From Candidatus Bathyarchaeia archaeon (GTDB lineage Archaea > Thermoproteota > Bathyarchaeia > 40CM-2-53-6): a stretch of 64,000 bases of DNA. Positions 8,988 through 33,733 of the stretch are shown piece by piece. Both the position numbers and the translations under genes were made by a program. Below the pieces are notes generated by a model that saw only the letters and a list, made by a program, of their open reading frames with translations, did not search any database and was not told the origin of the DNA. The number at the start of each line of letters is the position of its first letter. The stretch's first letter is position 1. The stretch covers positions 110,147-174,146 of the forward strand of contig JBEKSC010000002.1 in assembly GCA_049517415.1 (NCBI GenBank), written 5' to 3'.

Positions 8988-9511
8988 TGTCTACCGAAGA
9001 TCTGGGCCCCGAGGTCGCGGTTACAGGAGACTTCTGGCTTGGCAGAGGTCTCAGGTCAATCTGGACACTTGTTAGAGACTGCATTTCCAAGGCCGAAAGT
9101 GAAATTCAGATCGCAGCGTATGCAATAGGAGAGAATTCCGACGAGTATGAATTCTTCGAATTGCTGAGAGGTGTGCTAGCGCGAGGAATTCGAGTACTGA
9201 TGATTGTAAATAGGTTTTCCAATCAGCGTGGTTCTGTTCGAGATGCTCTTCTCGAACTTGCAGGGAAATATCCCAGTTTTGCGCTCAAAAGTTTCAACCC
9301 ACGGGACAAAAGAGAAGACCTCCACGCCAAGCTTATTGTGGTAGATCACACGATCGCTCTTGTCGGTTCGGCCAATCTGTCGTTCAAAGGAATGGTCGCG
9401 AATCATGAAGTAATGGTAAAGCTGTCTGGGAAGACTGCTTATTCTGTCGGTGAACTTCTTGACAGATTATCTGCGAATTCTGAGACCATCCAAGAAGCCA
9501 TAGGCAGGTGA
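8987..9511 (+). CDS. drmC: DISARM DrmC, phospholipase D-family nuclease
   Basis: HKD motif LHAKLIVVD...GSANLS...NHE; the ATG at 8987 overlaps the drmB stop (TAATG). Confidence 0.85.
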   Translation: MSTEDLGPEVAVTGDFWLGRGLRSIWTLVRDCISKAESEIQIAAYAIGENSDEYEFFELLRGVLARGIRVLMIVNRFSNQRGSVRDALLELAGKYPSFALKSFNPRDKREDLHAKLIVVDHTIALVGSANLSFKGMVANHEVMVKLSGKTAYSVGELLDRLSANSETIQEAIGR

Positions 9512-17718: not shown

Positions 17719-17797
17719 AGACAGCTTACTCAAATCCCAATCCGACGCTGCACCCAGCCGCCCAGTCTGGCCCATAGGGCGTGAGCTGAGTCAGTGA

Positions 17798-18364
17798 TTA
17801 CGGGCGCGTGTTTGATGCCTGCATTAGTGTCTCTAGCAGCTCGGTTACATCCGCTTGCTTCGCTCTTTTTCTGAGGTAGGAATAGTCGAGTCTGCCCTGT
17901 TGCATCGCCAGAACTGAGACGGCGTCCTGCTCATCTTGGACTCCTCGGTCTCTTCTGGCAAGTTTGTTTACAATGAAGTCTTCAGGGCCAATTGCGAACA
18001 TTTCGAAACGGTCAGCGAACGGGCGCACTTTCACACGCCGACGTAGAGTCTCCCTATCGAAAACAACGCCGTCAGGTTTCGTCCACATTTCGACTTCCAA
18101 CATTTCTTTAAGGTCCGTCACAAAGAAGAGCGCTGCGTCAGGGTGAGGCTCTGGTGCCAGCTGGTAACCCAATTTCTGTAGACGGCCTTGAAGTTCGATG
18201 CTCTTCTCGTAACTCGCTGCGATGGCCAAATCCACATCTTGGGTGGCTCGAATTTGACCATACGCTGCTAGGGCAAATCCTCCGATGAGCATATGCTGTA
18301 TGGACAGCTTATCGAGCGCGTTGGTTAACTTTCGCAGTGCTCGCGATGTTCCGGGCAAGTTCAT
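17798..18364 (-). CDS. nucleotidyltransferase-fold protein (DUF6036-like)
   Basis: LIGGFALAAYG.IRATQDVD, PEDFIVNKL...DEQD. Confidence 0.75.
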   Translation of the reverse strand: MNLPGTSRALRKLTNALDKLSIQHMLIGGFALAAYGQIRATQDVDLAIAASYEKSIELQGRLQKLGYQLAPEPHPDAALFFVTDLKEMLEVEMWTKPDGVVFDRETLRRRVKVRPFADRFEMFAIGPEDFIVNKLARRDRGVQDEQDAVSVLAMQQGRLDYSYLRKRAKQADVTELLETLMQASNTRP

Positions 18365-18725
18365 TTACCTCTTGGAATCTTTCATACGGCGATATACCGC
18401 TCTCAACTAGCCTTCTTGCAAGCCCCGCCTGATGCAGCGCCTTTTTGATATCATTCTCATTGCTCCGAAGAGACAAATCACGAAGGCGGTTGTATTGTCT
18501 CACGAACTGTTTGCCAATCGGCGTAGCACGGAGGATTTGTCTTGGTCGGCCCACACCTTGTTTTCTTGAGACTTCCGGCAACAGGAGGCTACGTGCTCTG
18601 AGCTCTTTGACCAGCGCCATAGTTCTATCGTGGCTCCCGCCCATCTTCTCCGCCAGCTCCGACACAGACAACTCCCCTTGGGAGCAATGAGAGAGAATGC
18701 TCGCAGCTAAGTCGATTCGCAGCAT
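18309..18725 (-). CDS. winged-helix protein, probable partner of the nucleotidyltransferase
   Basis: LSVSELAEKMG...GVGRPRQILRATPIGK; overlaps the NTase gene. Confidence 0.65.
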   Translation of the reverse strand: MLRIDLAASILSHCSQGELSVSELAEKMGGSHDRTMALVKELRARSLLLPEVSRKQGVGRPRQILRATPIGKQFVRQYNRLRDLSLRSNENDIKKALHQAGLARRLVESGISPYERFQEVNELARNIASTAKVNQRAR

Positions 18726-19012
18726 TCACCTCACCGCATTTATTCCTATTTTCAGGAGTAAATTAGGCTCGTGCCGACATATAAAGACAGAAGCAACGTA
18801 GTCTGCTCGTATACAGCCGACGCCCAACCCCTTAGAAATCTTGAGGACTTGCCTTCAACTGATGACCTGCTCACCATGGTCGAGAAATTTCGCGAACTGA
18901 GTTCAAGAAACACTAGTGGGCGTGAAGAGCCTCGCACGGGAAAATATCGTTACCGGGAAACATTGGGAAGGTTGTGAGAAAATTGTCGACTGTTCGATCG
19001 CTAAATGTTCTG

Positions 19013-20038
19013 TTATAACGGGTTGCCGGTTGATGAATCGTCAATGTAGATTGGGGGTACCGATGTCACTTGGATTTGGTTATGGTTGACGTTATTGTTG
19101 TTGGAATTTTGCAGCAAATCCATTCCCGTACTATAGGGTGGGAGGGTGCTTCCTCCTTTGACCTGGTTGTTGTCGATGACGTTGTTGCTTGAACCAAATA
19201 GAACTATTCCGCCGTATCTGTTGTTGGTTAGCTGGTCGCTATCGATCTGCGTGTTGTTGGCTAGAAGAGCGATTCCGATATCGTTGCCGGTAAGGTTATT
19301 GTGATCGACCTCAGTGCTGCTTCCGGCTAGATATAGCAAAATGCCCGCGGATTGTTCGACGTTTACAAGATCGGGTCCGCAAGCGGTTGTGTTGTTGCAT
19401 TCATTTTCTGACACATTGTTATGGTCGACTTCGCTAACGGCTCCGAACCCAATCTGTATACCTGCCGCAGCATTATTCGATGGAGCACCCGTGCCATCAA
19501 CTACGTTATAGTTAACCATCACCTTTGAACCGAGGCAATTTACCGCGATTCCACCGTTCTGATAGTTGTATATGGAGTTGTGGTCAACGTCCCCCAATGT
19601 GGACCCAATAATACAAGACGGCTGACTAGACGGAGACCCTGCATCGGTCGTTGCATAATAGACCGCTACACCGTGCTGTGCTCCATCACGCGGGTGGTCG
19701 CCAATATCATGAATTGTGCTATGATTCAGATCAACACTTGCCTGATGAACTAGAACGCCAAAGTACCGAGCGTCATGAATGTTTGCGTTGACAACTGAAC
19801 CACTTGAACCGGGTGCAAAGTACACGCCAATGTCGCATCCAAATGCGTTAAGCTCACCACTGATCTTAGCTGTGGCGGTCACGATGATACTCGCAGTTAG
19901 ATTGACGCCATCCCTGAAGTAACCCGTCGCCGTACAGGAAGTTGCGAATGACGGAGCAGCTGCTACCGTTGCTCCGAATAATATGAACAGTACAATCGTC
20001 AGTTCCTTACCCTTCAAGAAGTCAAATTCTCCTTTCAC
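19013..20038 (-). CDS. secreted right-handed parallel beta-helix (NosD/CASH-like) protein
   Basis: Signal peptide; repeated VDHNN / N..GI motifs. Confidence 0.75.
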   Translation of the reverse strand: MKGEFDFLKGKELTIVLFILFGATVAAAPSFATSCTATGYFRDGVNLTASIIVTATAKISGELNAFGCDIGVYFAPGSSGSVVNANIHDARYFGVLVHQASVDLNHSTIHDIGDHPRDGAQHGVAVYYATTDAGSPSSQPSCIIGSTLGDVDHNSIYNYQNGGIAVNCLGSKVMVNYNVVDGTGAPSNNAAAGIQIGFGAVSEVDHNNVSENECNNTTACGPDLVNVEQSAGILLYLAGSSTEVDHNNLTGNDIGIALLANNTQIDSDQLTNNRYGGIVLFGSSNNVIDNNQVKGGSTLPPYSTGMDLLQNSNNNNVNHNQIQVTSVPPIYIDDSSTGNPL

Positions 20039-20557
20039 GTTGGGTATCGGTCAAGGTAGGAACGGATTTGTCCATTTAAGGCGAGGGAACCAAGTGACTA
20101 AATTGTGTCAGTTTGGTGCAAGCGTGTCATTGGTCTTTGATATTTCCAAACGGAGCGTGCCATCACCGTGAACGTGGCTCTCGGAAACATAATTCATGTG
20201 AGAATTGACCCGATTACGCGTAGAACCCTACAGAAAGCGCGGGGGAGGCCGTAACGTCAAGGAACGTATAATGACCGGGGCATCATTTACTCCTGCTTGC
20301 GATAGATGGGTCAAGGACTTGGCCTGCAAATAGTAACGCTTTTCAAAAGCAGTAAAACGGGCGACGTTTGACTCAGAAAACTGAGTCACCCCCCTGAGGA
20401 GTCTCTTCAAGCGTGCGCGCACCATTGGGTCCGAATGGGGGCTCGGCAGTAGGGCGAGAAAAGAGATGCCTAGCATATGTTATACACTAGGTAAGGAATA
20501 CAGTACGCCTCCAGGAGCGCTAGGTCATAATTTTCCATTGACCACCATGATGCACTA

Positions 20558-22003
20558 TTGCTTTCGATGATGAATCGATGGTGTGGGGACCTGCAGCCAG
20601 CAAATCGTAACCCTTCTCCGAAGCTTTTCGGGACTTCTGGCATCAGAGGGTCAGCAAGCGGATTCTTCACTACAGATTTTGCGGAGAGGCTTGGCCATAC
20701 ATTTGCGACGTTTCTCGAGAGTCGTGGAACCGTCTACGTTGGTCGTGATGTAAGGTTGCATTCAAAACCAATCCAAGGCGCTTTGATGAACGGCCTCCTA
20801 GCGGGGGGAGTGGATGTTATGGATTGCGGGCTTGTGCCAACACCAGCTTTACTCTTCGCGATGAAGGAGGCTGAATCCGCGGGGGGTGTTATGGTTACGG
20901 GAAGCCACACGCCACCTGAAATTGCGGGCGTATTGTTCTTTCTCAGTGATACTGGGGAGATGGATCCGCGCGGAGAGAGGTTATTTGAAGGGATCTACGC
21001 GTCCGCACCGTGGCGGCAACATCCCTCCGGCAGAAAGGGTTCGATGGGTTCCCTCGGAATTCTTGACGCCTATACCAAGACGCTCGAGGCGAGTATAGGT
21101 TACATCGGCGGGTACAAGGTTGTCGTCGACCCCGGTAACGGGGCTACGTGCGCAACGCTAGGCCGCGTTCTGGAAAGGTTAGGATGCAAAGTTGAGACTA
21201 TAAACGGTAATCCTGACGGGCGATTTCCCGGCCGCCCCCCGAACCCTCAGCCTTCTACACTTACCCAGCTCTCGAGAGCCGTGAAGAAGACGAACGCAGA
21301 CCTAGGGGTCGGAACTGATAGTGACGGTGACCGAGCCCTATTCGCAACGGAACAGGGGCGAGTGTTATGGGCCGACCTAACAGGCGCAATTTTCGCGAAA
21401 AACGAATTGAAGAGCCATGCTGGCGGAACAGTGATCAGCACAGTGAACACGTCAAGCATCATCAAGCTTCTATGTCAGGAATACGAAGGGAACCTCACCG
21501 TCACTAAGGTTGGGCCTCCGGCAATCGCTGAAGCGTTGCGTACCACTGAGAACGTGATATTTGCAACCGAGGAGTCTGGGAAGCACATCTGGCCAAGTAT
21601 CATACTCTACGGGGACGCGGCTTTCTCATCGGGCAAGCTGCTACAGATTATGAAGTCTGAAGGAATGAAATTAGAGCAACTTCAGGGCGACCTCCCGAAG
21701 TTTCACCAGTCCAAATCAACAATCCCGTGCCCAGACCAATTGAAAACTGAGGTGATGAAGTTTGTCACACTCTCGTGGAAGGCACGGTCGCGAGATGGGC
21801 GAACGCAAACCTCAACTATCGACGGCTTAAAGGTCGAGTACCCGGACTCATCGTGGTTTCTAGTGAGAACTTCCGGCACTGAGCCTCTACTGAGATGTAA
21901 TGCTGAGGCCCGAAGCCTGCGACGTGCGCAGGAACTTCTAGGGAGAGCAACTAAACTAGCACTACGAGGTATTAGGATGGCAGGGGAAACGCAAGGAACT
22001 TGA
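20558..22003 (+). CDS. alpha-phosphohexomutase family enzyme, probable phosphopentomutase
   Basis: LFGTSGIRG, TGSHTP, DSDGDR, EESG, RTSGTEP; overlaps deoC. Confidence 0.8.
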   Translation: MLSMMNRWCGDLQPANRNPSPKLFGTSGIRGSASGFFTTDFAERLGHTFATFLESRGTVYVGRDVRLHSKPIQGALMNGLLAGGVDVMDCGLVPTPALLFAMKEAESAGGVMVTGSHTPPEIAGVLFFLSDTGEMDPRGERLFEGIYASAPWRQHPSGRKGSMGSLGILDAYTKTLEASIGYIGGYKVVVDPGNGATCATLGRVLERLGCKVETINGNPDGRFPGRPPNPQPSTLTQLSRAVKKTNADLGVGTDSDGDRALFATEQGRVLWADLTGAIFAKNELKSHAGGTVISTVNTSSIIKLLCQEYEGNLTVTKVGPPAIAEALRTTENVIFATEESGKHIWPSIILYGDAAFSSGKLLQIMKSEGMKLEQLQGDLPKFHQSKSTIPCPDQLKTEVMKFVTLSWKARSRDGRTQTSTIDGLKVEYPDSSWFLVRTSGTEPLLRCNAEARSLRRAQELLGRATKLALRGIRMAGETQGT

Positions 22004-22674
22004 TATCCCGCACGCAACTGGCCGGTATGATAGATCACTCGGTGCTGCGTCCTGACTCGACCGAGGAGGATGTAAAGAATGGGTGCAAGTTGGCGGTTGA
22101 CCTTGGTTTGGCCGCGGTTGTAGTCAACCCAGCACATGTTCCAATAGCGGCAACTTACCTCAAGAATTCAGCCGTGAAGACTTGTAGCGTCATCTCTTTT
22201 CCGTTCGGCCTTTCCACGACGGAAGCGAAAGTCGCCGAAACAAAAGGCGTTCTGGCCGAAGGGGCAGAGGAAGTGGATATGGTTTTGAACTTCAGTGCCC
22301 TCCGCTCAGGCCGCGAGGGATACGTCTTGAATGAGGTAAAGAGCGTTGTAGGGTTGGCTAAGACTTACACGAAGAAAGTGGCTGTCAAGGTTATTCTTGA
22401 AACATGCTACCTGAATGATGCTGAGAAGGAGAAGGTGTGCCTATTGGCAGTTGAGGGGGGTGCCGATTTTGTAAAGACCTCCACAGGATTCGGCTCAGCC
22501 GGAGCCACTGTTGGTGACATTCGGCTGATGAGACGAACTGTTGGTTCGAGAGTGGGTGTGAAGGCAGCGGGTGGCATAAGAACCACCGACCAGGCGCTGC
22601 AAATGGTGGAGGCGGGGGCGAACAGAATAGGAACTAGCTCAAGCCTTTCCATTCTTGAAGGAATGACACGCTAA
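22000..22674 (+). CDS. deoC: deoxyribose-phosphate aldolase
   Basis: IDHSVL, FPFG, VKVILET, FVKTSTGF, VKAAGGIR, RIGTSS. Confidence 0.95.
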   Translation: MISRTQLAGMIDHSVLRPDSTEEDVKNGCKLAVDLGLAAVVVNPAHVPIAATYLKNSAVKTCSVISFPFGLSTTEAKVAETKGVLAEGAEEVDMVLNFSALRSGREGYVLNEVKSVVGLAKTYTKKVAVKVILETCYLNDAEKEKVCLLAVEGGADFVKTSTGFGSAGATVGDIRLMRRTVGSRVGVKAAGGIRTTDQALQMVEAGANRIGTSSSLSILEGMTR

Positions 22675-22747
22675 GATACGCTCATTTATGATTGAAAAAT
22701 CATCTTTGCGAAATCTTATATCGGCCTCGGACAGCGATTGTTAGTTC

Positions 22748-24301
22748 ATGTCGAAGCCAACGGTCTTCGTTAGACAAGCTACGGGCCTCGTGAAGAGCGT
22801 TAGCCCGTGGGCGCTATTCTTCGCGATGCTTGGCGAGATAGGGTTCGGAACCGGCCTGCTGTTGGTGAACGTCGCGAACTCTTTCTTCTCGGACGGCAAC
22901 CCGGGCGGTAACGGCGTTGATGCGACGCTGCTGCTTCTGTTTTTCGTAATTTTTGAGTCCTTCATCTTCTATCACGTTGTTCGTTCGGTTGGAAGGACGG
23001 GTGGGGATTACGTTTGGATGAGCAGGAATATTGGGCCCGTACTGGGCGGTGCGCTCATCCTCGGTTTCGTCTTCACTGGTATGCCGTTCTTGGCTGTGTC
23101 GGCGAACTGGTTCGTCACATTCTCACTCGCACCCAGCATATCTACAATCGCTGCGGTGTCAGGGAACAGCGGCCTGACTTCCTTCTCAGCGATGCTAACT
23201 ACTTCGACGGCGTTGATAGTCATGGGATTGTCTTTGATTGCGGTATTAACAGCAGTTGACATAGTATCGCCCAGGTCCGGATTTCAACTGCTTGCAGCCC
23301 TAACCATAATACCGCTCATAGGCACATTCATTATGGCAGGCGTCTTCTTGGGTTTCGGCCCAGCTGGCATACAGGCTTCCGTCTCAAACTTTCTTTCACA
23401 AAACGGCGGTTCATACACGCAGATAGCGTCTCAATACGTTGGCCCCGGTGCGTCACTTTCCGGCGTAGTGCTTCTCATTCCCTGGCTTTTCTTCACTCTG
23501 CCATGGGTTAACAACGCAGCAGCATTTTCAGGGGAGTTGAAGAATCTAAAGAGGTCGGCGTGGATAGGCACAGCGCTTCCCGGCGTTTTCAGCGGTCTGA
23601 TGTTAGCCGGGTTCATCGCGTTGTTCAATTGGGGTTTGGGTTTCAATTTCGCAATGCAAGCCCCGATCTCGTGGCCGGGTTCGTTGTATGCCATGGGCGT
23701 TGTCCCGAACATGCTAACAATCGCGACCATTGCGATTCGTGATAATCCGACTCTGATGTGGGTGATGAACGTGACCTTTGCCGTCTGGTACCTAGCTTCC
23801 CTTCAGCAGACGATTCTTTCGGTTTCGCGCTATATTCTTGGGATGAGTTTTGATAGGCTGATACCCGTTCAACTCGCGCATGTTAGTGATAGGTTCCATT
23901 CGCCAACCGCAGCCCTATTGTTGTGTTTCGTGGTTGCGATTCCAATGGTATTCATAGTTTCCTTAACAAACTGGACATCGCTTTACACTACGAGCGCTCT
24001 TGGGAGCGTGTTCTTTGCCTTCATCGGAATAACCGCGATAATCTATGGGTGGAGGAAGAGAAAGCAACTCGGGGGGACTGGGCCCGCTCTCATAGTATCC
24101 GGCTTGCTAATCGCCCCATTCTTCCTGTACGTTACATACCAGTTCCTGGCCCTACCCTTCTACGGCATCAACAACATCTCATGGGGAATCATGCTCTTCT
24201 TCTGGGTTCTGGGCGCGCTGCTCTACCCCATAGGTAAATGGTACTACGGAAGGAAAGGGTTAGACCTAAGCCTAGTCTTCAAAGAACTTCCACCCGAATG
24301 A
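22748..24301 (+). CDS. APC family amino acid permease
   Basis: FVRQATGLVK, GGDYVWMSR, SFDRLIP; 12 or more TM helices. Confidence 0.85.
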   Translation: MSKPTVFVRQATGLVKSVSPWALFFAMLGEIGFGTGLLLVNVANSFFSDGNPGGNGVDATLLLLFFVIFESFIFYHVVRSVGRTGGDYVWMSRNIGPVLGGALILGFVFTGMPFLAVSANWFVTFSLAPSISTIAAVSGNSGLTSFSAMLTTSTALIVMGLSLIAVLTAVDIVSPRSGFQLLAALTIIPLIGTFIMAGVFLGFGPAGIQASVSNFLSQNGGSYTQIASQYVGPGASLSGVVLLIPWLFFTLPWVNNAAAFSGELKNLKRSAWIGTALPGVFSGLMLAGFIALFNWGLGFNFAMQAPISWPGSLYAMGVVPNMLTIATIAIRDNPTLMWVMNVTFAVWYLASLQQTILSVSRYILGMSFDRLIPVQLAHVSDRFHSPTAALLLCFVVAIPMVFIVSLTNWTSLYTTSALGSVFFAFIGITAIIYGWRKRKQLGGTGPALIVSGLLIAPFFLYVTYQFLALPFYGINNISWGIMLFFWVLGALLYPIGKWYYGRKGLDLSLVFKELPPE

Positions 24302-24514
24302 ACCCCTGAATAACACAGGCCACCTCATCTGCGTCGTTAACAGGAAAACCAAATCCCGTCGTTTGATCGACTCCACCCGGCACGAACGCCGACGACGCCA
24401 TCGCTGAATACCTCTACGTAGAATGGATCACAAGAAAAGAGCATGCAAGGCTCCTGAAAACGCTGGGAATATTCGCTAACCCACCATAGAACTACTTCTT
24501 CTCCAAGTATTTGA

Positions 24515-24524
24515 GAACAAAAAT
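24515..24524. repeat. attL core GAACAAAAAT
   Basis: Identical to 31416-31425. Confidence 0.8.
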
Positions 24525-24582
24525 TAGGGTTAATATTTTATACTAGAAACATCCTATTCTAGGGTTTGAGGCAGTCAGAGCC

Positions 24583-24900
24583 TTGAAACCAGTCCTTAAC
24601 ACGAAGGATGGAACTCTGAGCGTCGAAGGCTCTCGGTTCCTAGCTCCAAGGATAACCGTGTCCTCGGAGATAACTAACCCCATAGGCCCTCTTAGTTTTT
24701 TGGGGCCAGTCGAACCGGAATACACCCCTGCGATTCCGGTAGAGTGCAAGTGCCACGGAAGATGCAAAGTGGCTTTGAAACCTAAGTGCGTATGCCGATG
24801 CCACGGTAAAGGCCATAGCGAAGCAATAAGAAAAGTAAACCATACCATTGAGGAATATGGGGAACACAATTCCCCTATTCTGAGGTATATCTATGCCTAA
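24583..24900 (+). CDS. Cys/His-rich small protein
   Basis: ECKCHGRCKVALKPKCVCRCHGKGH; overlaps the integrase start. Confidence 0.55.
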   Translation: MKPVLNTKDGTLSVEGSRFLAPRITVSSEITNPIGPLSFLGPVEPEYTPAIPVECKCHGRCKVALKPKCVCRCHGKGHSEAIRKVNHTIEEYGEHNSPILRYIYA

Positions 24901-26095
24901 AGGAATACATCTAATTAACCCTAAACTAACCGCCTTCCGTCAAGACGCTAATATCAAGAAGTGGCTGGATAGCCTGCATAAGAATACTAGGGCTGGTTAT
25001 GAGTCATGCCTGTTTCAGCTATGCGACCAATTAGCCTTAACGGGATCGCAGGTAAAGGATCTAGCAAAAGATAACCCAATTGAGCTGTCTCTAAGAGTAA
25101 AGGTCGTAGTGAAGAGGCTTCAAAATACGCGTGAAGTTTCAGACAGGACCATAGGCTATCGACTAGCGGCATTAACTAACTACCTGAACCTGTTCGAATT
25201 AGAGGCCCCCAGACTGTTGGGGCTGAAAATTAAAAGAGGCAAGTCTGCCACGCACCCGCTGATAAGCTGGGAACTAGCGAATAAGATAATTTCCCTAACC
25301 CCTGAGAAATATCAACCTGTCTTTAAGCTGATGCAATGGGGCCTAGACCTGGAACGCATATGCCAAATCAACGTAAACCCATACGTCAAATCAATAGAGA
25401 AGAAAATTATGGACAGCGTTAAGGAGCAATTAGAGAACCCTAAGAATGATTTAATCCGGTTAGACGTAGATGGCAGGAAGGGTAACGCTGATCCATATTA
25501 CATAGTGTTGCCCAGAGAAGTAGCTGGCTTGCTGCCAGTCAGGACTATTAGATATTCTGACATTATCAGTAAGGATGCGGTTAGGCGTAGTTGGCGTGTC
25601 GGACTGAAAAGAGCTGGCCTGCCGATAGATAGTAAACACGGCCCACATAATTTACGCTCTTGCTGGCTGACCGAAGCCACAAAGAGGGGACTGGAACCGG
25701 TGCTCCGAGAATTCCAGCTCGGCCACTCAGTTGACAGCCTGAATTATCAGAGAATCACGCAAGATTATGATTGGGTTTTAACCCAGTTCCGCAAGTCCTG
25801 GGCTATGAATGAACCTTCAGCAACGAGGAAGGAACTTGGTGAGCGAGATAAGAAAATTAGCGAACTAGAAAACCACAACGAGGAGCTTCGGCGGATTATC
25901 GGTGAAGACCTGTTGGAGCAGCAGTTGAAGCTACAAGACCAGATATTGCAGTTACTTAAGGAACGGGGCCTCCGCACGCAGATGCCCATTTCAGAGTACC
26001 CGCCCGACATCAAGGAATTACAGGATCAACTAAACAGAACCACAGAACGGCTGCTTAGATTAGGATTAATTAAACCAGGGGACGAGTTCGGGTAA
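24893..26095 (+). CDS. tyrosine recombinase/integrase with C-terminal coiled coil
   Basis: GRKGN, HGPHNLRS, LGHS...NYQR catalytic pattern. Confidence 0.8.
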   Translation: MPKGIHLINPKLTAFRQDANIKKWLDSLHKNTRAGYESCLFQLCDQLALTGSQVKDLAKDNPIELSLRVKVVVKRLQNTREVSDRTIGYRLAALTNYLNLFELEAPRLLGLKIKRGKSATHPLISWELANKIISLTPEKYQPVFKLMQWGLDLERICQINVNPYVKSIEKKIMDSVKEQLENPKNDLIRLDVDGRKGNADPYYIVLPREVAGLLPVRTIRYSDIISKDAVRRSWRVGLKRAGLPIDSKHGPHNLRSCWLTEATKRGLEPVLREFQLGHSVDSLNYQRITQDYDWVLTQFRKSWAMNEPSATRKELGERDKKISELENHNEELRRIIGEDLLEQQLKLQDQILQLLKERGLRTQMPISEYPPDIKELQDQLNRTTERLLRLGLIKPGDEFG

Positions 26096-26288
26096 ATCAC
26101 CGCCCCCCGCACTTCCATATTGTCTAGTTCCGCAATTTATGTTCTAATAGTCATAATATATTCTCGACTATAACCTTAGTTATGGGTAGACTGTTACCGT
26201 AGGTAAGGATGAAAACCGATAAGTTTATATAGGTATATATTATAAGGGCTAAGCAAGGAGATACTTAAAAAGTATTTGGTGCTTAATA

Positions 26289-26483
26289 ATGAAGCAAATG
26301 AAGCGAAATATGCTAAGGGTGCAGGAAAGCCACCCGAACGTGAATCACAAGGACTACTCGCAATTCAAAATCACGATTCCCGTTAACGAAGCTAGATTAC
26401 TGAAACTGAGTCAGGGAGACTTACTCATAGCAACTATTCAGAACGATAAGCTCGTCTACAGTAAACTAGCAGGAGGGAATTAG
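26289..26483 (+). CDS. AbrB/SpoVT-like DNA-binding protein
   Basis: QFKITIPVNEARLLKLSQGDLL; AT-rich TATA-like region upstream (26224-26243). Confidence 0.7.
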   Translation: MKQMKRNMLRVQESHPNVNHKDYSQFKITIPVNEARLLKLSQGDLLIATIQNDKLVYSKLAGGN

Positions 26484-26487
26484 AATT

Positions 26488-27051
26488 ATGAAAAATGAAA
26501 AGAAAATTGAGCCGTGGATGCAAAACGCGGCGAATCGATTAGCGTCAACGACGATTAAGGTAACGAGTCATGAATTCAAAGGAATTCCGTTCGGGGAACT
26601 CGTACTAAGATTAACGGATGGCAAAACAGTTCCATTCAACAAACTAACGGAAATCCAGCTTAACTACTATAAAGAGAACGTATTACCGAACAGTCAAGGT
26701 AACCCCGCTAGGCAAGGAACACCTAGCGGAAGAAGCAGCAACCAAACAGGCAGTGGAAGTGGCAGTCAACTTGGTTCCCCAAGCCTAGATGATTCAAACG
26801 TATCAATGGACGATTTTCCGCAAAGCGAAGAACCAATTTGGATCAGGCAACCCGGACTAGGCTGCCGAGTAATTATAGTCGGAAGCAAAGACGAATTAGC
26901 GCAACTGAAAGCGGTAGGCGGCTTAACTGGTTGGGGTGTCGCCGGATATTATGACGCAGGCGTGAGCCACCAGGGCGCATACTTCGTTTACTTGATACCT
27001 GACTCAGCCGCCGCGGATATTGATACAGGCTTAGGACACCAACCCAGTTGA
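26488..27051 (+). CDS. hypothetical protein with Ser/Gly linker
   Basis: ORF in a tight operon with a GGAGG RBS. Confidence 0.6.
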   Translation: MKNEKKIEPWMQNAANRLASTTIKVTSHEFKGIPFGELVLRLTDGKTVPFNKLTEIQLNYYKENVLPNSQGNPARQGTPSGRSSNQTGSGSGSQLGSPSLDDSNVSMDDFPQSEEPIWIRQPGLGCRVIIVGSKDELAQLKAVGGLTGWGVAGYYDAGVSHQGAYFVYLIPDSAAADIDTGLGHQPS

Positions 27052-27063
27052 GGTAAGCAAGCG

Positions 27064-27453
27064 ATGTCAATTTTGACTGGGCCAGAAACCCCAAAGAAGA
27101 TGTGCCCCATATGTGGGATCAGTTACAGTTACGAAATTCGGTTCAGAGAAATGCTCGGGTTGCGAGTCTGTCAGAAATGTTTTGATTCTCAGGGCATCGC
27201 TGACCAAATTCGGCAACTGAAAGCTCGGGCGCAGGGTGAACGTGAAGCACTAGAACGAGCTATTGCTAAAGACAAAGCAGACCAAGCAGCTAATCAGAAT
27301 CCAGCACCTAGCATCATGGGCAACTGCTATGAATGTGGGCTTCCGTCTGTCAAACTCACCAAACTAAGTAATGGGCATTCCTATTGTCGTAGGTGCGCTG
27401 AACCCCGCAACAGAAGCGCAATGGGGTTAGTTGAAAGAAACCTGGCGCAGTAA
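27064..27453 (+). CDS. double Zn-finger protein
   Basis: CPIC..CQKC and CYEC..CRRC; GAGGT RBS. Confidence 0.65.
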   Translation: MSILTGPETPKKMCPICGISYSYEIRFREMLGLRVCQKCFDSQGIADQIRQLKARAQGEREALERAIAKDKADQAANQNPAPSIMGNCYECGLPSVKLTKLSNGHSYCRRCAEPRNRSAMGLVERNLAQ

Positions 27454-27613
27454 CGTGAAGCCTACTCCTCCTTTACCTAAAGTTCCTCGACCTCCACGAC
27501 CCACGATTAAGATTCAATGCGCTAATTGTGGCCTAGAGAAAGAGGCGCTTCTTCCGCGCTACTGCCTCGACTGCAGCCGAGCCTATCACATGAGGCTAAC
27601 TAAAGGCGAATGA
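27431..27613 (+). CDS. small Zn-finger protein
   Basis: CANC...CLDC. Confidence 0.55.
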   Translation: MKETWRSNVKPTPPLPKVPRPPRPTIKIQCANCGLEKEALLPRYCLDCSRAYHMRLTKGE

Positions 27614-27616
27614 CTA

Positions 27617-27883
27617 ATGACTAACCCTAACCTGAAACCTCCTGAAACCTACCGGAAAAAACCAGTTAAAGTAACGTCAGCGGAATGCGTTGAATGTCAC
27701 GCCACGTTCACGCCCCGCTTCAAGGTGCTAATCTACGAACCAATCTTTTGTGACGCGTGTATTTCTAGGCTGGTGATTCTGGGAGTGAAGGCGATGCTGG
27801 ACCGGCGAGGCAAAATCACCCATTACGAACAAGTCGCATCGAAGAAAGAAGAGCCGATCATGGAGGCCGCTGTTTACGTGTAG
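27617..27883 (+). CDS. small Zn-finger protein
   Basis: CVEC...CDAC. Confidence 0.6.
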   Translation: MTNPNLKPPETYRKKPVKVTSAECVECHATFTPRFKVLIYEPIFCDACISRLVILGVKAMLDRRGKITHYEQVASKKEEPIMEAAVYV

Positions 27884-27977
27884 GTACAAAGCAGACGCCA
27901 GTAAAATTCATCCTGCAACCCCCCGAAATGAAAGGAGAAGAATCGGCATAATTTACCAATCCCACAAATTCAACGAC

Positions 27978-28679
27978 TTGACCGCTAACCTAGAAGCCTT
28001 GAAACAACACGGCACCATAGCGGACTACCAAATCACCCAGTACGTAAGCGACATTAACGAACCGGACATCATAATCGAATTAGCCCTCCTGGACGGACGA
28101 ACAGTAAGAGTCGCCACAGAATGTAAGAATTGGAACCCGTACACAAGCAAAGGAGTACCCTATACCCTCAACTCAACGAACTACCAGCATGAAGTACGAC
28201 CTAAGTTCTTTGAGAACGGCGCAAAGAAACCCTTCGATTACAGCCTAGCATTATTCCATAATCCACTAGACCACACCCAAGCCGACTATCCACTAAACCG
28301 AGACGGCGTAAGATACGTGGACGACGAAGACCTATTCAGCACCCTGCTAGGCATCCTCGAAGAAGAATACGGCCCTGAAGCATGGTCATGTATCTATAAT
28401 GGGTATGCTATGCCTAGACGTGGGTTTAGTTATAGTGTAAGTAAGGGTAATTGGATTAGTGGTTGTTCTAATGAATCTAATTTAGTGGGTTCAGTTGCGG
28501 CACCCCGAGCCCCGTTAGCTTCATGCGAGGGCGAGGCATTTGTCCGTGGGCCTGAGCCTTGTCCTCGTTGCGGCTGTGTGTTTTGTGGTTGCAGTAGCGC
28601 AATAACTAGTTCACATGTGACAGGTACGGCGTCCTCACGGACGCTTTACTATGGAGATAGTGTTTTTGGAGGACATTAA
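27978..28679 (+). CDS. PD-(D/E)XK nuclease-like protein (frame open further upstream)
   Basis: EPDIII...ATECKNW. Confidence 0.6.
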   Translation: MTANLEALKQHGTIADYQITQYVSDINEPDIIIELALLDGRTVRVATECKNWNPYTSKGVPYTLNSTNYQHEVRPKFFENGAKKPFDYSLALFHNPLDHTQADYPLNRDGVRYVDDEDLFSTLLGILEEEYGPEAWSCIYNGYAMPRRGFSYSVSKGNWISGCSNESNLVGSVAAPRAPLASCEGEAFVRGPEPCPRCGCVFCGCSSAITSSHVTGTASSRTLYYGDSVFGGH

Positions 28680-28999
28680 GCAGCGTCAAAGGGGAAGCTC
28701 CCACAGGGGCGACGCTGAAGTCAACTCCAAACGCCTTCGTGGTAGTAGGCGACGAGCTCATTATCTCCATTCCCCAAAATATTCCTACATTACAACGCCT
28801 TCCTCGTTACGCCGACTGTGCTGGCGGTCGGCTAACTTGCTTGTTGGGGTCTCCGGACCCAAATGAAAACCCATTTCTCGGAGCCACAGAAATGTGGGTG
28901 ACGGTCAAGCCTCCCCAACAATCCAACTTACCTTACAGCCCAAATTTTGCCGTATGGTAATTTTTCCCCTATAACAAACCAGTTGGTGCGTAGTTCTCT

Positions 29000-29611
29000 T
29001 TGTTGCCCGATACCTCAGTTGTGATAGCTCTTATAGTAATGGAACTTCTTATACTGCTGAATCTTGCGATGTCGAGTGATGAGGACGCAGTTGTAGTAGG
29101 CATCATGAGCCTAGGGGTCGTGGCTGCCCTTGGTATCTTGGAAGCCCCAGCTTATGTTCCTTTGTCGTTAAAGGTTATTTGGTTAATTTGCGACGCTGCC
29201 CTAATCGTTCTTCTCTGTTATTGGTACATTTCGACGAAGCGTGCTGAGAGATTTCTTTTTGTGATTAAACCAACCCTTGCTCAATGGGCTAAAATGGTCG
29301 TCAACTATGCGAGTGGAAGGATTGTCATAGTTCAAGCTGGGATACCATCGAATGGGCGTTACCATGTCGTCCAAGAATTGTCTCATTTTGCTGAAGCCAA
29401 AGAATACTTGGAGCGGCGTTACAAAGATATCTATGGTAAGTGGACTGAAGCCAATTCAGATGTTAAGAATTACAATGATTTGATTGACCGTGGCGAACAG
29501 GATACAGCATTATCTGCTCGGTATAAGTTGGGAGCTGTTGAAAGGTTAGACGCTTTTCGTAGAGACTTAACGACCCTATTGGAGAGGATAGATCTCGGTA
29601 AGGAGAGTTGA
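29000..29611 (+). CDS. membrane protein (3 N-terminal TM helices)
   Basis: Hydrophobic N-terminus, soluble helical C-terminus. Confidence 0.6.
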   Translation: MLPDTSVVIALIVMELLILLNLAMSSDEDAVVVGIMSLGVVAALGILEAPAYVPLSLKVIWLICDAALIVLLCYWYISTKRAERFLFVIKPTLAQWAKMVVNYASGRIVIVQAGIPSNGRYHVVQELSHFAEAKEYLERRYKDIYGKWTEANSDVKNYNDLIDRGEQDTALSARYKLGAVERLDAFRRDLTTLLERIDLGKES

Positions 29612-29982
29612 AGTTAGGTGATGGGCTCAACATACACGGCTTAATACTTGCTTTCTGTATGATTGTCAACCACTTGTCCTTGCCAAAATCAGGGTTACCT
29701 TACAGATTATAGCCCAATAAATTCGGCTACGTAGGAGTAGGAATTATCTATCATCGTAGTAGTAATAGTAATTCGATCGTTATTTCTTTACTGTGGGTTT
29801 AGGTTAATGGGTTACTGTGACTCGTTTCTTGTGTACTTGCCGTTTACGGTTAGTATTGGTTGCTACATGTGTACCTGGACTGGTCTGAGTTAGTCGTGTT
29901 CCTCGTGAGGGCTGTTAACTTACTGGTATGCGACTTCCGAATGGTGAGAATTCTGCAGTAATCAAGTTAAGAGTAGTACCTG

Positions 29983-30016
29983 GCCTCGCCGCTGTGAGGC
30001 TTCCTTTCTTTTCTTC
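29983..30016 (+). terminator. hairpin plus pyrimidine tract
   Basis: GCCTCG-CCGCTG-TGAGGC followed by TTCCTTTCTTTTCTT. Confidence 0.35.
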
Positions 30017-30370
30017 ATGCGACCTCAAACAGCCCGTAATCAAACCTCTAATCTAACCCGCATAAGTATCGAATCGATATAGATTACCATAACTTATGGG
30101 AGTGCGTAGACTGATAGAGATGGTCAACCGATCCTAAGCACGGTTAATTATATGGCGTCGAATCGGAGCTTAATTCAGGTCGTTAGCGTTTAATTTACCC
30201 GTAAGTTTCCTGTTGGGGATGCCGTTTGCTAGCTTAACTCTGAAGGGGATGCCGCAAGGCTCCGGAAGCCTCCCCCCATTAGACGTTTAACTTAGGGATG
30301 TTTGGCGTTACCGCAATCTTAGAACGTTAGTTATGGAGTAATAAGTACTTGAACGTTGGAAGCCTACACC

Positions 30371-30865
30371 ATGAGTAAACGAGTCATAATTCTCCTGTTA
30401 GTTACGTTAATTGGTTTAACGATTAGCGACTTTACGCCTGCTTATGGGCAATTCAATGGTTACCCTCAAACCAGCCCCGCAAACCCGACAGCTAATCAAC
30501 CAATTACTTTCAGTGTGACAATCTCGAACTCAGAAGTATACCTGGTTACATTTTCCATCTACCCTAACGCGTCCTTGAACTTATGTGATACTGGAGACTG
30601 GCTCCAGCTTAGTCCGTCCCTAACGCTTCATGCTTCGCCTAATAGTGAAAATGTTTGGAGCGCCACCTCAACGGCGGGCCTGCCTGCTGGGCTATACGGC
30701 CTTGTAGTCTACGCTTACTATGCTAATGTTGGTAGCCCAATGTGCACCGTCTTTAGGGTAGCGAAGCCGACGCTTCCCGTCCCTGAATCTAATGCAATCC
30801 AAATCGTAGCGTTCATGGCGCTCGCAGCTTCGCTATACTTACTACGACGCAGGAGGAACGAGTAA
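30371..30865 (+). CDS. secreted surface protein with PEF-CTERM-like sorting signal
   Basis: Signal peptide; PVPES + TM helix + RRRR. Confidence 0.75.
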   Translation: MSKRVIILLLVTLIGLTISDFTPAYGQFNGYPQTSPANPTANQPITFSVTISNSEVYLVTFSIYPNASLNLCDTGDWLQLSPSLTLHASPNSENVWSATSTAGLPAGLYGLVVYAYYANVGSPMCTVFRVAKPTLPVPESNAIQIVAFMALAASLYLLRRRRNE

Positions 30866-31338
30866 TGCGGAATGCATGGATAATCGTCGTCACCGTCTTC
30901 CTTCTATTCACGCCTCTAGCGGTTAGTGTGGCGTACGGACAGCAGTTCAGCATAACGACTTCCCCGCCAGTTCCTGTGGCCGGTCAATCTTTTACGTTTC
31001 ATGTGGTAAGTGTTCCGCTTAGTCAGAATATGCTTATGTACCAAATACTGACTACGGGCTGTCCGCAAATCCAGTGGAATACCACACCTCTTTCTCCTGT
31101 CGTTTCGAGTGATAAGAACGGTGACTTCGATTACACGCTAAGCTCAGGGTTGCCAGCAGGTTTCTACTGCATTCTCCTAATGTCGGACAATGGGAAGAAC
31201 AATGGGGATTTCTCTGAAGTTTTCGGCATGTCAATAGTGGTTTCGCCTGCCAAGCCCGTGCCTGAGTTCAGCGCAACCGAAATCGTAGCGTTCACGGCCC
31301 TTGCAGCTTCCCTAATCGTTCTACGGCGGAGACACTAA
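30865..31338 (+). CDS. secreted surface protein with PEF-CTERM sorting signal (paralog of the previous gene)
   Basis: Signal peptide; shared TSP.xP.A.Q..TF and GLPAG.Y motifs; PVPEF + TM + RRRH. Confidence 0.8.
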   Translation: MRNAWIIVVTVFLLFTPLAVSVAYGQQFSITTSPPVPVAGQSFTFHVVSVPLSQNMLMYQILTTGCPQIQWNTTPLSPVVSSDKNGDFDYTLSSGLPAGFYCILLMSDNGKNNGDFSEVFGMSIVVSPAKPVPEFSATEIVAFTALAASLIVLRRRH

Positions 31339-31368
31339 GACCCTAACGCTTGTATGAGTAATAATAAC

Positions 31369-31806
31369 TCATTTTTGGGTTGATTTTCCGTGTTTCTTAA
31401 TTAAAATGAATTTCTGAACAAAAATCCTCGTGTACTCCTCTAAATCCAACTTCAAAGCTTCTTCAGGTTTAACCCAAACGTAATCCTGCAGCTCCCGCCC
31501 ATCCAACTTCACCTTAGAACTCTTCGCTTTCAGAACATAGTCCATGAAGATGAAGTGTTCGTGCTTGTGAAAGCCCTTCGGGTAAATTGCCTGCTGAACG
31601 ATCAGCAGTTCAACCGGTTCGGCCTCCAAGCCTGTCTCCTCCTTCACCTCTCGCCTAATCGCATCCTCCGACCGTTCTCCAAGCTCAATATGGCCGCCTG
31701 GGACGGTGTACTTGTCGCCCCACTTGTGCGAGCGAACAATGAGAACCTCGCCCTTCTCGTTTACGACGAGGGCGCCGACTGTGGCTTCAGGGTAAGTTTG
31801 GGTCAA
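31369..31806 (-). CDS. NUDIX hydrolase (C-terminus supplied by the element)
   Basis: PGGHIELGERSEDAIRREVKEETGL Nudix box. Confidence 0.92.
   Translation of the reverse strand: MTQTYPEATVGALVVNEKGEVLIVRSHKWGDKYTVPGGHIELGERSEDAIRREVKEETGLEAEPVELLIVQQAIYPKGFHKHEHFIFMDYVLKAKSSKVKLDGRELQDYVWVKPEEALKLDLEEYTRIFVQKFILIKKHGKSTQK
31416..31425. repeat. attR core GAACAAAAAT
   Basis: Identical to 24515-24524; lies inside the NUDIX CDS. Confidence 0.8.
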
Positions 31807-31857
31807 AGTAACACTTTCTCGGAAGGAAGCGTCTTAGGTCACTCCAGTTGCTGGGCT

Positions 31858-32046
31858 CTAGCTCCTGCCCATCATCGTACCGATAACTCCAACGACAGAG
31901 ATCAGGCCCCCAACTATCAAAATGAGGGGCTCCTGTGTTCTTAGGTAGACTAGGCCTGTGAAGACGATCAGTGCCATTAGGCCTGTGACGTTGACCATGG
32001 CTACTCTTGTTTGCGGCCTCAAGCCCGTGCACCAACTAGCAATCAA
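31858..32046 (-). CDS. small two-TM membrane protein
   Basis: Two hydrophobic segments. Confidence 0.5.
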   Translation of the reverse strand: MIASWCTGLRPQTRVAMVNVTGLMALIVFTGLVYLRTQEPLILIVGGLISVVGVIGTMMGRS

Positions 32047-32231
32047 TCAAGAGCTCCCCGTAGCCATCTATATTTCTATTCTTCCAAGGGAATCTAATAA
32101 CAAGGCAAACCGCATTTAGAGGGAAGGCGGCGCAGTTCATCTTGAGTACGACACCGAAACGTACTACGCGCAACTTGCGCTGACTAAAGCGGATGAAGAC
32201 AGCTGGAGGCTGAGTCACGCCAACAACTCCT

Positions 32232-33398
32232 TTGATCCCTGTTCTGAACAGGTTCTCCGCGGACGTAGTCAAACTCACGGAGGAAGTGTATGCCACCGAA
32301 ACGCTTGCCGTACTTGAGGCACTAACGAAACCCGTTGGAACATATTATGTCCGCTGCAACACCTCCAAGCTCTCAGCAAAAGAACTTCTGAACAGCCTTC
32401 AGCAGAGGGGCCTCAAAGTCATCCAACATCCACTAGTCCCCGAAGCCCTAGGCATTCAAGTGGAAGGCCCCTTCGAGATTCCACCCGCCGAACGAAGGGT
32501 TGTTGTGGATAAGCATACTGCTGAGTCGGTCTTGCAAGGCGCGAACGTTTACGCCCCAGGAATTCTAAACTGCGAGGGCCTTAGGTTCGGGGAGGATGTT
32601 GCTGTCGTCTCTGAGCTAGGGGATGAGCTTGCAACCGGTGCGGCGAACATGAGCGCGAACGACATCCTAACCTTCAGGAAGGGCCTGGCTGTTCAGGTAA
32701 AGCACAGGCGTTACACGGCCCCTCAGGTGAGGGATTTACCAGAATTCTCGGAGGGTCTGCTCTACCCGCAGTCGCTCGCGGCCATGGTAACAGCCCACGC
32801 GCTCGACCCTCAAGAGGGCGAGACCGTTGTTGATATGAACTGCTCGCCAGGCGGAAAACTATCCCACCTCAGTCAGTTGACGCATAATTCTGGAAAAATT
32901 TTCGGCTTCGATAGAAACATAGAGAAGGTAGGGCAGGCTCGTCAGACGCTAACGCGTTTGGGCTGTAGGAATGTTACACTTTCGATTCGTGATACCAGGT
33001 ACTTGCACCTAGACTTGGCTGATTTGCAATCCGACCGCACCTTGATCGACCCGCCATGCAGCGCTCTCGGCCTCAGGCCCAAAGTCTACGACTTCTCGAC
33101 CATAGACCGCGTGAATAACTTAGCAAATTATCAGAAACAATTCATCAAAGCTGGAAGCAAGGTAACAAAACCAGGGGGAATTATCGTCTATAGCGTCTGC
33201 ACCTACACAACACAGGAATGCGAGCGAGCAGTCGAATTCGCCGAGCACGACTGCGGGCTCAGTGTAGTGGAACAAAAGCTATTCCTTGGTTCAAAAGGCC
33301 TCGCGGCGCTCACGCCATCCGCCAGCAGTTGTCAAAGATTCAACCCAAACGTAGATGAAATCGGATACTTCATCGCAAAATTCCAACGCCAAGCATGA
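32232..33398 (+). CDS. RsmB/NOP family RNA m5C methyltransferase with PUA domain (NSUN6-like)
   Basis: GANVYAPGI (PUA), DMNCSPGGK, DPPCSALG.RP, YSVCT. Confidence 0.88.
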   Translation: MIPVLNRFSADVVKLTEEVYATETLAVLEALTKPVGTYYVRCNTSKLSAKELLNSLQQRGLKVIQHPLVPEALGIQVEGPFEIPPAERRVVVDKHTAESVLQGANVYAPGILNCEGLRFGEDVAVVSELGDELATGAANMSANDILTFRKGLAVQVKHRRYTAPQVRDLPEFSEGLLYPQSLAAMVTAHALDPQEGETVVDMNCSPGGKLSHLSQLTHNSGKIFGFDRNIEKVGQARQTLTRLGCRNVTLSIRDTRYLHLDLADLQSDRTLIDPPCSALGLRPKVYDFSTIDRVNNLANYQKQFIKAGSKVTKPGGIIVYSVCTYTTQECERAVEFAEHDCGLSVVEQKLFLGSKGLAALTPSASSCQRFNPNVDEIGYFIAKFQRQA

Positions 33399-33442
33399 AG
33401 TTTTAACGCCCAACTCTCCCGAATAATGGACAGGGAAATTAG

Positions 33443-33733
33443 TTGGAGTTGCCCGAGAACGTTCTGACGAAAGGGAAGGCTGGAAAACTTGAGGTTAGGG
33501 CCCTCGACTCACGCGGGAGGTATGTGATGTGCAAGTACCTCGACGCGAAGACAATGAAACCCGCCGATAAGAAGCGCAAGCTCATGCTTAAGGACCAGAA
33601 TGGGAATGTGCTCGAATATTTCATCATCCCGATAAAGGACCCCAAGCGCGCGCTTCTCCTAACCGCAAGTTCTGAAGAGAAGGAACGTCAAGTCTGGAAC
33701 GAAAGCCAAGGAAAAGCTGAGGATATCTGGTAA
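33443..33733 (+). CDS. hypothetical protein
   Basis: Compact ORF with plausible composition. Confidence 0.6.
   Translation: MELPENVLTKGKAGKLEVRALDSRGRYVMCKYLDAKTMKPADKKRKLMLKDQNGNVLEYFIIPIKDPKRALLLTASSEEKERQVWNESQGKAEDIW

Follow-up and report, generated by a model that had tools for sequence, protein, structure and literature searches.

Among described systems, the cryptic integrated elements of thaumarchaea come closest to the element reported here. According to the main text of Krupovic et al. 2019 (PMC6563490), 39 of 68 thaumarchaeal elements use tRNA targets and 14 of the 68 lie in the 3'-distal parts of protein-coding genes, and their attachment (att) sites are typically 8-26 bp in length; in NitEve-E2, with an att of 13 bp, the stop codon of the target is replaced with element-derived sequence and the open reading frame (ORF) is reconstituted. 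We have analysed a stretch of 64,000 nucleotides (hereafter the window) from Candidatus Bathyarchaeia archaeon (assembly GCA_049517415.1, contig JBEKSC010000002.1, positions 110,147 to 174,146 of the forward strand) and confirm in it a 6,901-bp element inserted in the 3' end of a Bathyarchaeia NUDIX hydrolase gene. It shares with NitEve-E2 and other thaumarchaeal elements a short att, a target in the 3' part of a coding sequence (CDS), a tyrosine integrase and a new stop codon; many of those elements likewise have no recognisable replication gene, empty relatives serve as verification there as here, and an AsnC regulator is one of the targets there, much as for a sister element described below (PMC6563490). 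In contrast to them, the host here belongs to Bathyarchaeia, seven codons are displaced as against 8 nt in NitEve-E2, that main text names no NUDIX target, and a tRNA is used by none of the six elements mapped here (PMC6563490). The integrases of our elements also differ in falling below the Pfam and NCBIfam thresholds.

In coliphage 21 and e14 the element end replaces the C-terminus of icd, and a long stretch homologous to the end of that gene is carried on the element. They have in common with the present element a tyrosine integrase, a housekeeping CDS that is entered in its 3' part and an element end that completes the gene, but they are prophages, and here only about four residues resemble the native tail. 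icd is listed as the target of both in PMC12540744, and 39.9% of provirus insertions are placed in CDSs in PMC13626063. A Nudix hydrolase gene is also a recurrent site-specific target of streptococcal integrative and conjugative elements, for which mutT has been reported (Ambroset et al. 2016, PMC4701971; PMC13693407); these conjugative elements use triplets of serine integrases and disrupt the gene, whereas in our case the ORF stays open, the integrase is of the tyrosine type and no conjugation gene was found. Elements of the Tn916/Tn1549 type, with their heterologous coupling sequences and conjugation module, differ from it by its exact repeats and by the absence of a conjugation match. Within archaea, Badel et al. 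2021 (PMC8371274) list further CDS targets and describe an SNJ2 integrase that is helped by small proteins of its operon. The integrases of SSV1, pTN3, pT26-2 and SNJ2 are, as the present one, tyrosine recombinases of archaeal mobile elements; unlike in suicidal integrases of the SSV1 type, att lies here outside the integrase gene and the target is not a tRNA (PMC8371274). Integrases are mentioned in two Bathyarchaeia viruses in PMC10848311, in passages that do not describe such elements, and the NUDIX genes of PMC3218068 are carried by elements rather than targeted and are not relevant here. No paper on the present integrase clade or on an archaeal NUDIX target was found in the article texts searched, supplementary tables (e.g. 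Table S2 of PMC6563490) lying outside that search.

The element is bounded by a 10-bp direct repeat, GAACAAAAAT, which has no copy in the window beyond these two (Table 1). Their start-to-start spacing is 6,901 bp, the very size given for the excised circle in an earlier prediction made from the letters of the window (the original prediction). By itself the repeat is modest evidence for att boundaries; the 2.65-Mb genome contains nine copies of it, and when 30-nt zones were paired at random with equal spacing, 5 of 20,000 pairs shared a 10-mer. What settles the matter is the empty allele of G014, a genome of the same genus (93% amino acid identity), in which the NUDIX protein ends in FVLKYLEKK*. 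Its DNA matches 24388-24521 (90%) and 31416-32119 (93%) of the window as adjoining and overlapping pieces, and because the empty allele joins there, at the predicted codon, the boundaries of the element at 24515 and 31416 are confirmed. Deletion of the element by script yields a 137-aa NUDIX protein with the C-terminus IFV-LKYLEKK*, and the integrated ORF of 145 aa reads IFV-QKFILIKKHGKSTQK*, which places the crossover between V130 and residue 131. The CDS target, the displaced native tail and the substitute tail were thus read correctly in the original prediction, and the comparison of NUDIX C-termini and synteny that it advised gave the expected result. Empty-type tails are found further in a close homologue, P0041 (IFV-LKYLEKK), and in P0022 and P0030 (IFV-IKYLEQ), in which 125 of the 127 core residues are the same; the NUDIX site is empty in G014, G018 and G021, the nearest relatives of the window genome. 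No tRNA gene was found in the window. With 46.5% GC the element lies below its 10-kb flanks (51-52%). For both the integrase and the NUDIX protein, homologues with a named source belong to Candidatus Bathyarchaeia, and the 20 metagenome runs that contain the stretch come from peat, wetland or soil; no RNA data set was listed among the runs, which carries no information on expression.

The new C-terminus of the NUDIX protein is encoded by the end of the element. A 17-bp motif, ATTTTATACTAGAAACA, is present in inverted orientation just inside both cores, its right copy falling within the codons for F133-H139 of the substitute tail. Matches of at least 12 of 17 occur in the genome background at 6.9e-5 per site and those of at least 14 of 17 at 5.7e-7. 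We regard the motif as a putative binding site of the integrase or an accessory factor, and its left copy could possibly serve also as TATA box of the operon formed by orf105 and the integrase gene. In the AlphaFold model of the integrated NUDIX protein, for which 65 sequences, most of them with native tails, were aligned, the last helix (residues 124-138, pLDDT 88-92 in this block) spans the crossover and residues past about 140 are disordered; the element would therefore supply the second half of the terminal helix. The tail begins with Q-K-F-I where the native protein has L-K-Y-L. Among 134 homologues (15 listed cluster members and the best of 664 hits), 100 have native-like tails of the form x-x-[YF]-[LM], 8 have x-x-[FY]-I-L and 26 have neither, the pattern having failed to anchor in 7 of these 26. 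Orthologues do not natively end in QKFILIKK; this ending is seen in only two of the 134, both identical to the window protein.

The left-end motif was scored on the DNA behind codon 131 in all 46 family orthologues that a set of 59 genomes yielded. It is present at the same offset in five (own gene 13 of 17, G013 14, G015 14, G010 12, G006 12), and the remaining 41 score at most 9 of 17 at any offset from 5 to 13. G013 has an 89-bp scar with a copy of CTTCGTTC on either side and, behind it, a displaced KYLE tail shifted by one base, and in G015 a remnant of about 550 bp contains a zinc-ribbon gene and a displaced FVSKYLSSRY*. Scar and remnant (L051 and L052), situated just behind the NUDIX gene, are both integrase-free; they may represent elements in decay, or else non-autonomous minis that were mobilised in trans. 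On a tree of 25 NUDIX genes the motif label needs four changes, at least three of them forced by well-supported branches; 132 of 500 label shuffles were as low, which gives no sign of clustering and fits scattered events. From these sequences, three to four separate insertions at the NUDIX codon are the simplest reading, one old insertion followed by several precise excisions being a less simple possibility.

Tyrosine recombinases share the catalytic motif R...H-x-x-R...H/W...Y. In the integrase of the element, R155, H252, R255, H278 and Y285 are invariant among 16 homologues, and K196 is the candidate for the catalytic lysine. Its ORF is unbroken and starts about 370 bp inside the left repeat, so the original prediction of an intact integrase that is not split by att stands. 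Its AlphaFold model (pLDDT 84.5) gave 11 Foldseek matches at E<=0.001; the best matches are all of the tyrosine recombinase fold, with XerA and lambda Int leading (E about 1e-4) and integron IntI and XerH also in the top rows, at TM-scores of just 0.25-0.42 for this flexible two-domain model. No match was obtained in the Pfam scan, PF00589 included. PF00589 matches 2 of the 16 homologues weakly (best E 0.003), and the integrase itself has weak profile matches to NF040815 of NCBIfam (E 0.0037) and phrog_1 of PHROGs (E 0.0092). By its residues and modelled fold, the protein is a divergent, intact tyrosine recombinase. Homologues of orf105 accompany the integrase in many related loci and frequently lie immediately ahead of it, although L085 yielded none; no family match was obtained for orf105 in scans that included Pfam and PHROGs. 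It is a candidate accessory or directionality factor and might have a role similar to that of the SNJ2 operon helpers (PMC8371274).

Alignment of the integrase family finds matches in 16 of 59 family genomes, four of the matches being in the own genome. The survey comprised 25 loci taken from collection scans, 20 regions in relatives and 3 in the own genome; in the majority one end was missing or the element was left unmapped. Exact repeats of at least 12 nt near distant integrases were mostly at chance level among those listed and were accepted only with an empty relative. For six elements, that of the window among them, both ends could be mapped and relatives supply an empty allele; their targets are four CDS 3' ends, one CDS 5' end and one intergenic site. 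None is a tRNA, and their cores are in all six cases exact direct repeats of 8-14 bp. In an ARAGORN scan the 20 regions contained no tRNA and the 25 scan loci a single one, which lies some 10 kb away from the integrase; the integrase clade is apparently tRNA-avoiding. The integrases of the C18, C5 and C1 elements are about 26-30% identical to that of the window element. Insertion of the C18 element turns QIGFKG* into G* only, a one-residue tail, at a site that is empty in G014, G018 and G021. The C18 and window elements share orf105 and a secreted cargo gene (86%) despite integrases of 26% identity, which suggests exchange of modules. At the C1 site the native N-terminus MKRVALYL gives way to the look-alike NKRRIALYL supplied by the element, and in L091 (G003) a 25-bp repeat encodes a VALYLQDK stretch, the same as the C1 target. 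The C5 element, whose site is empty in G014 and G021, is flanked by genes which, from their sequence, we take to encode a uracil-DNA glycosylase-like and a ribosomal L40e-like protein. L074 and L064 occupy the CDS 3' ends of a secreted and a small membrane protein, respectively; both have empty alleles in relatives and inverted motifs at their ends, 9 bp long in L074 and 11 bp in L064. Sites are reused: L062 and L085 share one, L068 and L074 another, and own C1 and L091 a third. We dropped a placement of L062/L085 in a CDS 3' end, as in relatives the spot appears between divergent genes. Direct repeats of 17 bp in L089 (G011:C5) and 14 bp in L102 (G016:C1) bracket further elements with more distant integrases. 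A short dispersed, MITE-like repeat of about 45-80 bp was seen in L133 (about 9330-9410) and L056 (about 8080-8170), with 12-29 matches per genome in G013, G014, G018 and G021, and several copies of a possibly different short repeat are present in G000.

Four of the 20 metagenome runs were compared with positions 23000-33500, all as contigs, which drop rare forms. Depth is flat across element and flanks, and every run has contigs that bridge the integrated form on the left (to 30469) and on the right (30820-31466 or beyond). A joint of 24518 to 31425 in three of the four was rejected as a product of excision; between its two sides stand five other letters, which match the G014-type allele, and a loose end at 24388 continues into the intact neighbouring gene. 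We read it as coming from a sister species present in the same samples. In the sampled population the element appears to be fixed and quiet.

Taken together, the window has an integrase gene beside one end of the element, direct-repeat att sites, an empty relative and no virion, conjugation or casposase signature gene in the scans, as cryptic integrated elements do. We consider it likely that this is such an element, inserted in NUDIX through its 10-bp core and translated at its end. It would be a small mobile DNA with a circular intermediate, whose integrase would recombine the core with the identical 10 bp in the codons for the last NUDIX helix, while the integrase or its partner orf105 may bind the 17-bp motifs inverted 8-10 nt inside both ends. 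The NUDIX reading frame would then run into the element end, translating the motif and what comes after it as far as the first stop, and Q-K-F-I, resembling native L-K-Y-L, would finish the terminal helix. This likeness and the modelled helix suggest that the enzyme with its new tail probably still folds and may be active. The earlier claim that the element keeps the gene open stands for the ORF; a functional rescue would go beyond this, given the one-residue tail left by the C18 element. A tolerated tail would leave elements of the clade free to insert time and again at this codon within the genus and to decay there into short scars. Only tentatively do we extend this to an undescribed, Bathyarchaeia-centred and Pfam-missed clade of tRNA-avoiding integrases that retargets among CDS ends by core change while keeping the inverted end motif, with dual-coded ends selected for a helix-completing tail or a look-alike N-terminus and with the NUDIX codon as an independently colonised hotspot.

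Several observations weigh against these interpretations. The edges of the 17-bp motif were chosen after both ends had been seen, and no clear inverted end motif is present in the C18 and C1 elements. The predominance of native tails in the alignment favours the helical outcome in the AlphaFold model. A clade integrase beside NUDIX is seen in none of the 45 other NUDIX-bearing family genomes and none of the 24 other integrase loci adjoins NUDIX, so no second full-length element was seen at this site. Two checks suggested in the original prediction were negative: neither the circle junction nor an exact own-strain empty site is found in the four contig sets, in which rare excision is invisible.

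The substitute tail may be selected for function or merely tolerated. A purpose-built att part that keeps the enzyme active, as that of phage 21/e14 at icd, is possible without being the likelier case. Four motif lineages keep an aromatic and then an aliphatic residue at tail positions 3-4 (QKFI, QEFI, ERYI and VHFI, against native xKYL), and this pair, together with the look-alike N-terminus of C1, favours selection, as does the completed helix of the model. Positions 3-4 are, however, also what the end motif encodes, hence the likeness need not mean selection at the protein level. The tails, 15-26 residues long, are unrelated beyond residue 4, which together with the one-residue tail of C18 favours tolerated read-through, and since the Pfam NUDIX domain ends at residue 132 little may need rescuing.

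An integrase of relaxed, Tn916/Tn1549-like specificity, which would bind its own ends and use many AT-rich look-alike sites, NUDIX being just a favoured one, could account for close homologues (43-50% identity) with different targets and cores and similar end motifs, and Tn1549 Int is among the structural matches; the exact repeats in all six mapped elements, the reuse of sites (NUDIX in 3-4 lineages, and the three shared sites above) and the single copy of the element in the genome make this unlikely. Equally improbable, in our view, is that the element is not plasmid-like and cryptic but a small provirus, or a satellite, from an unrecognised family. Its small size, zinc-finger ORFs, nuclease-like ORF and membrane proteins would suit such an origin, and cryptic elements may be novel viruses or plasmids in the wording of PMC6563490. 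Against it, no capsid, terminase or packaging ATPase match was obtained in Pfam, NCBIfam or PHROGs, no relative of the integrase was found in IMG/VR contigs, phage records or plasmid records, and related elements share hardly any genes beyond the integrase and orf105. A chance repeat, or one produced as an assembly artefact, with ordinary drift accounting for the differing tails, is almost certainly the wrong reading: the nine genomic copies of the 10-mer would allow for it, but the exact junction in G014 refutes it, and a separate contig, to all appearance independent, shows 100% identity over 15,790 bp that include the left junction; together with the bridged junctions this argues against an artefact.

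Virion, conjugation, casposase and replication genes were not recognised among the element ORFs in the Pfam, NCBIfam and PHROGs scans, a negative that leaves room for divergent folds. No family was found for the 187-aa protein. The 88-aa zinc-finger-like ORF has a homologue in L062. The 233-aa ORF is without a Pfam match; its matches that carry PD-(D/E)XK/Mrr families score 0.84-0.88. The composition of its C-terminal part (28400-28679) is unlike coding sequence, and in about 740 bp before the cargo genes (29612-30355) no ORF of 50 aa starts; either region could be a place for an origin or an RNA. The two secreted-looking paralogues, the first of which is the one 86% identical to the C18 cargo, are presumably PEF-CTERM-like and have no NCBIfam or Pfam match. 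Outside the element, the 5' part of the gene of about 164 aa that is truncated at 24388 was not found in the own assembly; the truncation is a separate, second rearrangement beside the element. A sugar-phosphate/transport block at 17730-24388 (phosphomannomutase, DeoC aldolase, permease-like) abuts the truncated gene and was not found in the G014 region compared.

Table 1. Coordinates of the element, its target and its mapped sister elements (window positions unless a contig is given).
Feature	Position	Strand or size	Remarks
att core, integrase-side copy GAACAAAAAT	24515..24524	+	repeat and empty allele
att core, NUDIX-side copy	31416..31425	+	spans codons I128-F129-V130 and base 1 of codon 131
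Displaced native NUDIX tail LKYLEKK* (residues 131-137)	24492..24515	-	identical tail in G014 empty allele
Host NUDIX hydrolase gene, integration target	31369..31806	-	PF00293, E 8e-24, residues 8-132
Host-gene remnant, last 33 codons of ~164-aa conserved gene normally facing NUDIX	24388..24490	+	
17-bp element-end motif ATTTTATACTAGAAACA, left copy	24535..24551	+	10 nt inside core
Inverted end-motif copy, right	31391..31407	-	8 nt inside core, 13/17 match
Element-derived substitute tail (Q)KFILIKKHGKSTQK*, NUDIX residues 131-145	31369..31415	-	
orf105, Cys/His-rich, 105 aa	24583..24900	+	overlaps integrase start
Tyrosine recombinase, 400 aa, intact	24893..26095	+	fold and catalytic residues; C-terminal long helices
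AbrB/MazE-like small DNA-binding protein, 64 aa	26289..26483	+	weak, E 0.06
Orphan protein, 187 aa	26488..27051	+	three other relatives only among 1.84 billion representatives
Three small Cys-rich (zinc-finger-like) ORFs, 129/60/88 aa	27064..27883	+	
233-aa ORF, N-terminal part PD-(D/E)XK/Mrr-type nuclease-like	27978..28679	+	lead only
Predicted membrane protein, 203 aa, cargo	29000..29611	+	hydrophobic N-terminal half; no family match
Two paralogous secreted-looking proteins	30356..31338	+	endings VPE-x, hydrophobic helix, basic tail
C18 sister element (L132)	G000 contig C18 25726-36538	10.8 kb	14-bp core, Lrp/AsnC-domain gene 3' end
C1 sister element (L134)	G000 contig C1, L134 1629-11335	9.7 kb	8-bp core, luciferase-like monooxygenase 5' end
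C5 element (L133)	G000 contig C5 60329-67621	7.3 kb	11-bp core, between divergent genes

Integration in the 3' end of a gene with a replacement stop codon is already known from bacteria and Thaumarchaeota, and what the present locus adds is a divergent integrase clade and a reused NUDIX site. Since standard profiles miss this clade, such elements are unannotated in Bathyarchaeia genomes, and mapped short att sites are now available for it. The pairs of integrases and att sites with different targets form a small testable set for the switching of recombinase specificity, and odd C-termini of the NUDIX family may be explained as scars of repeated insertion.

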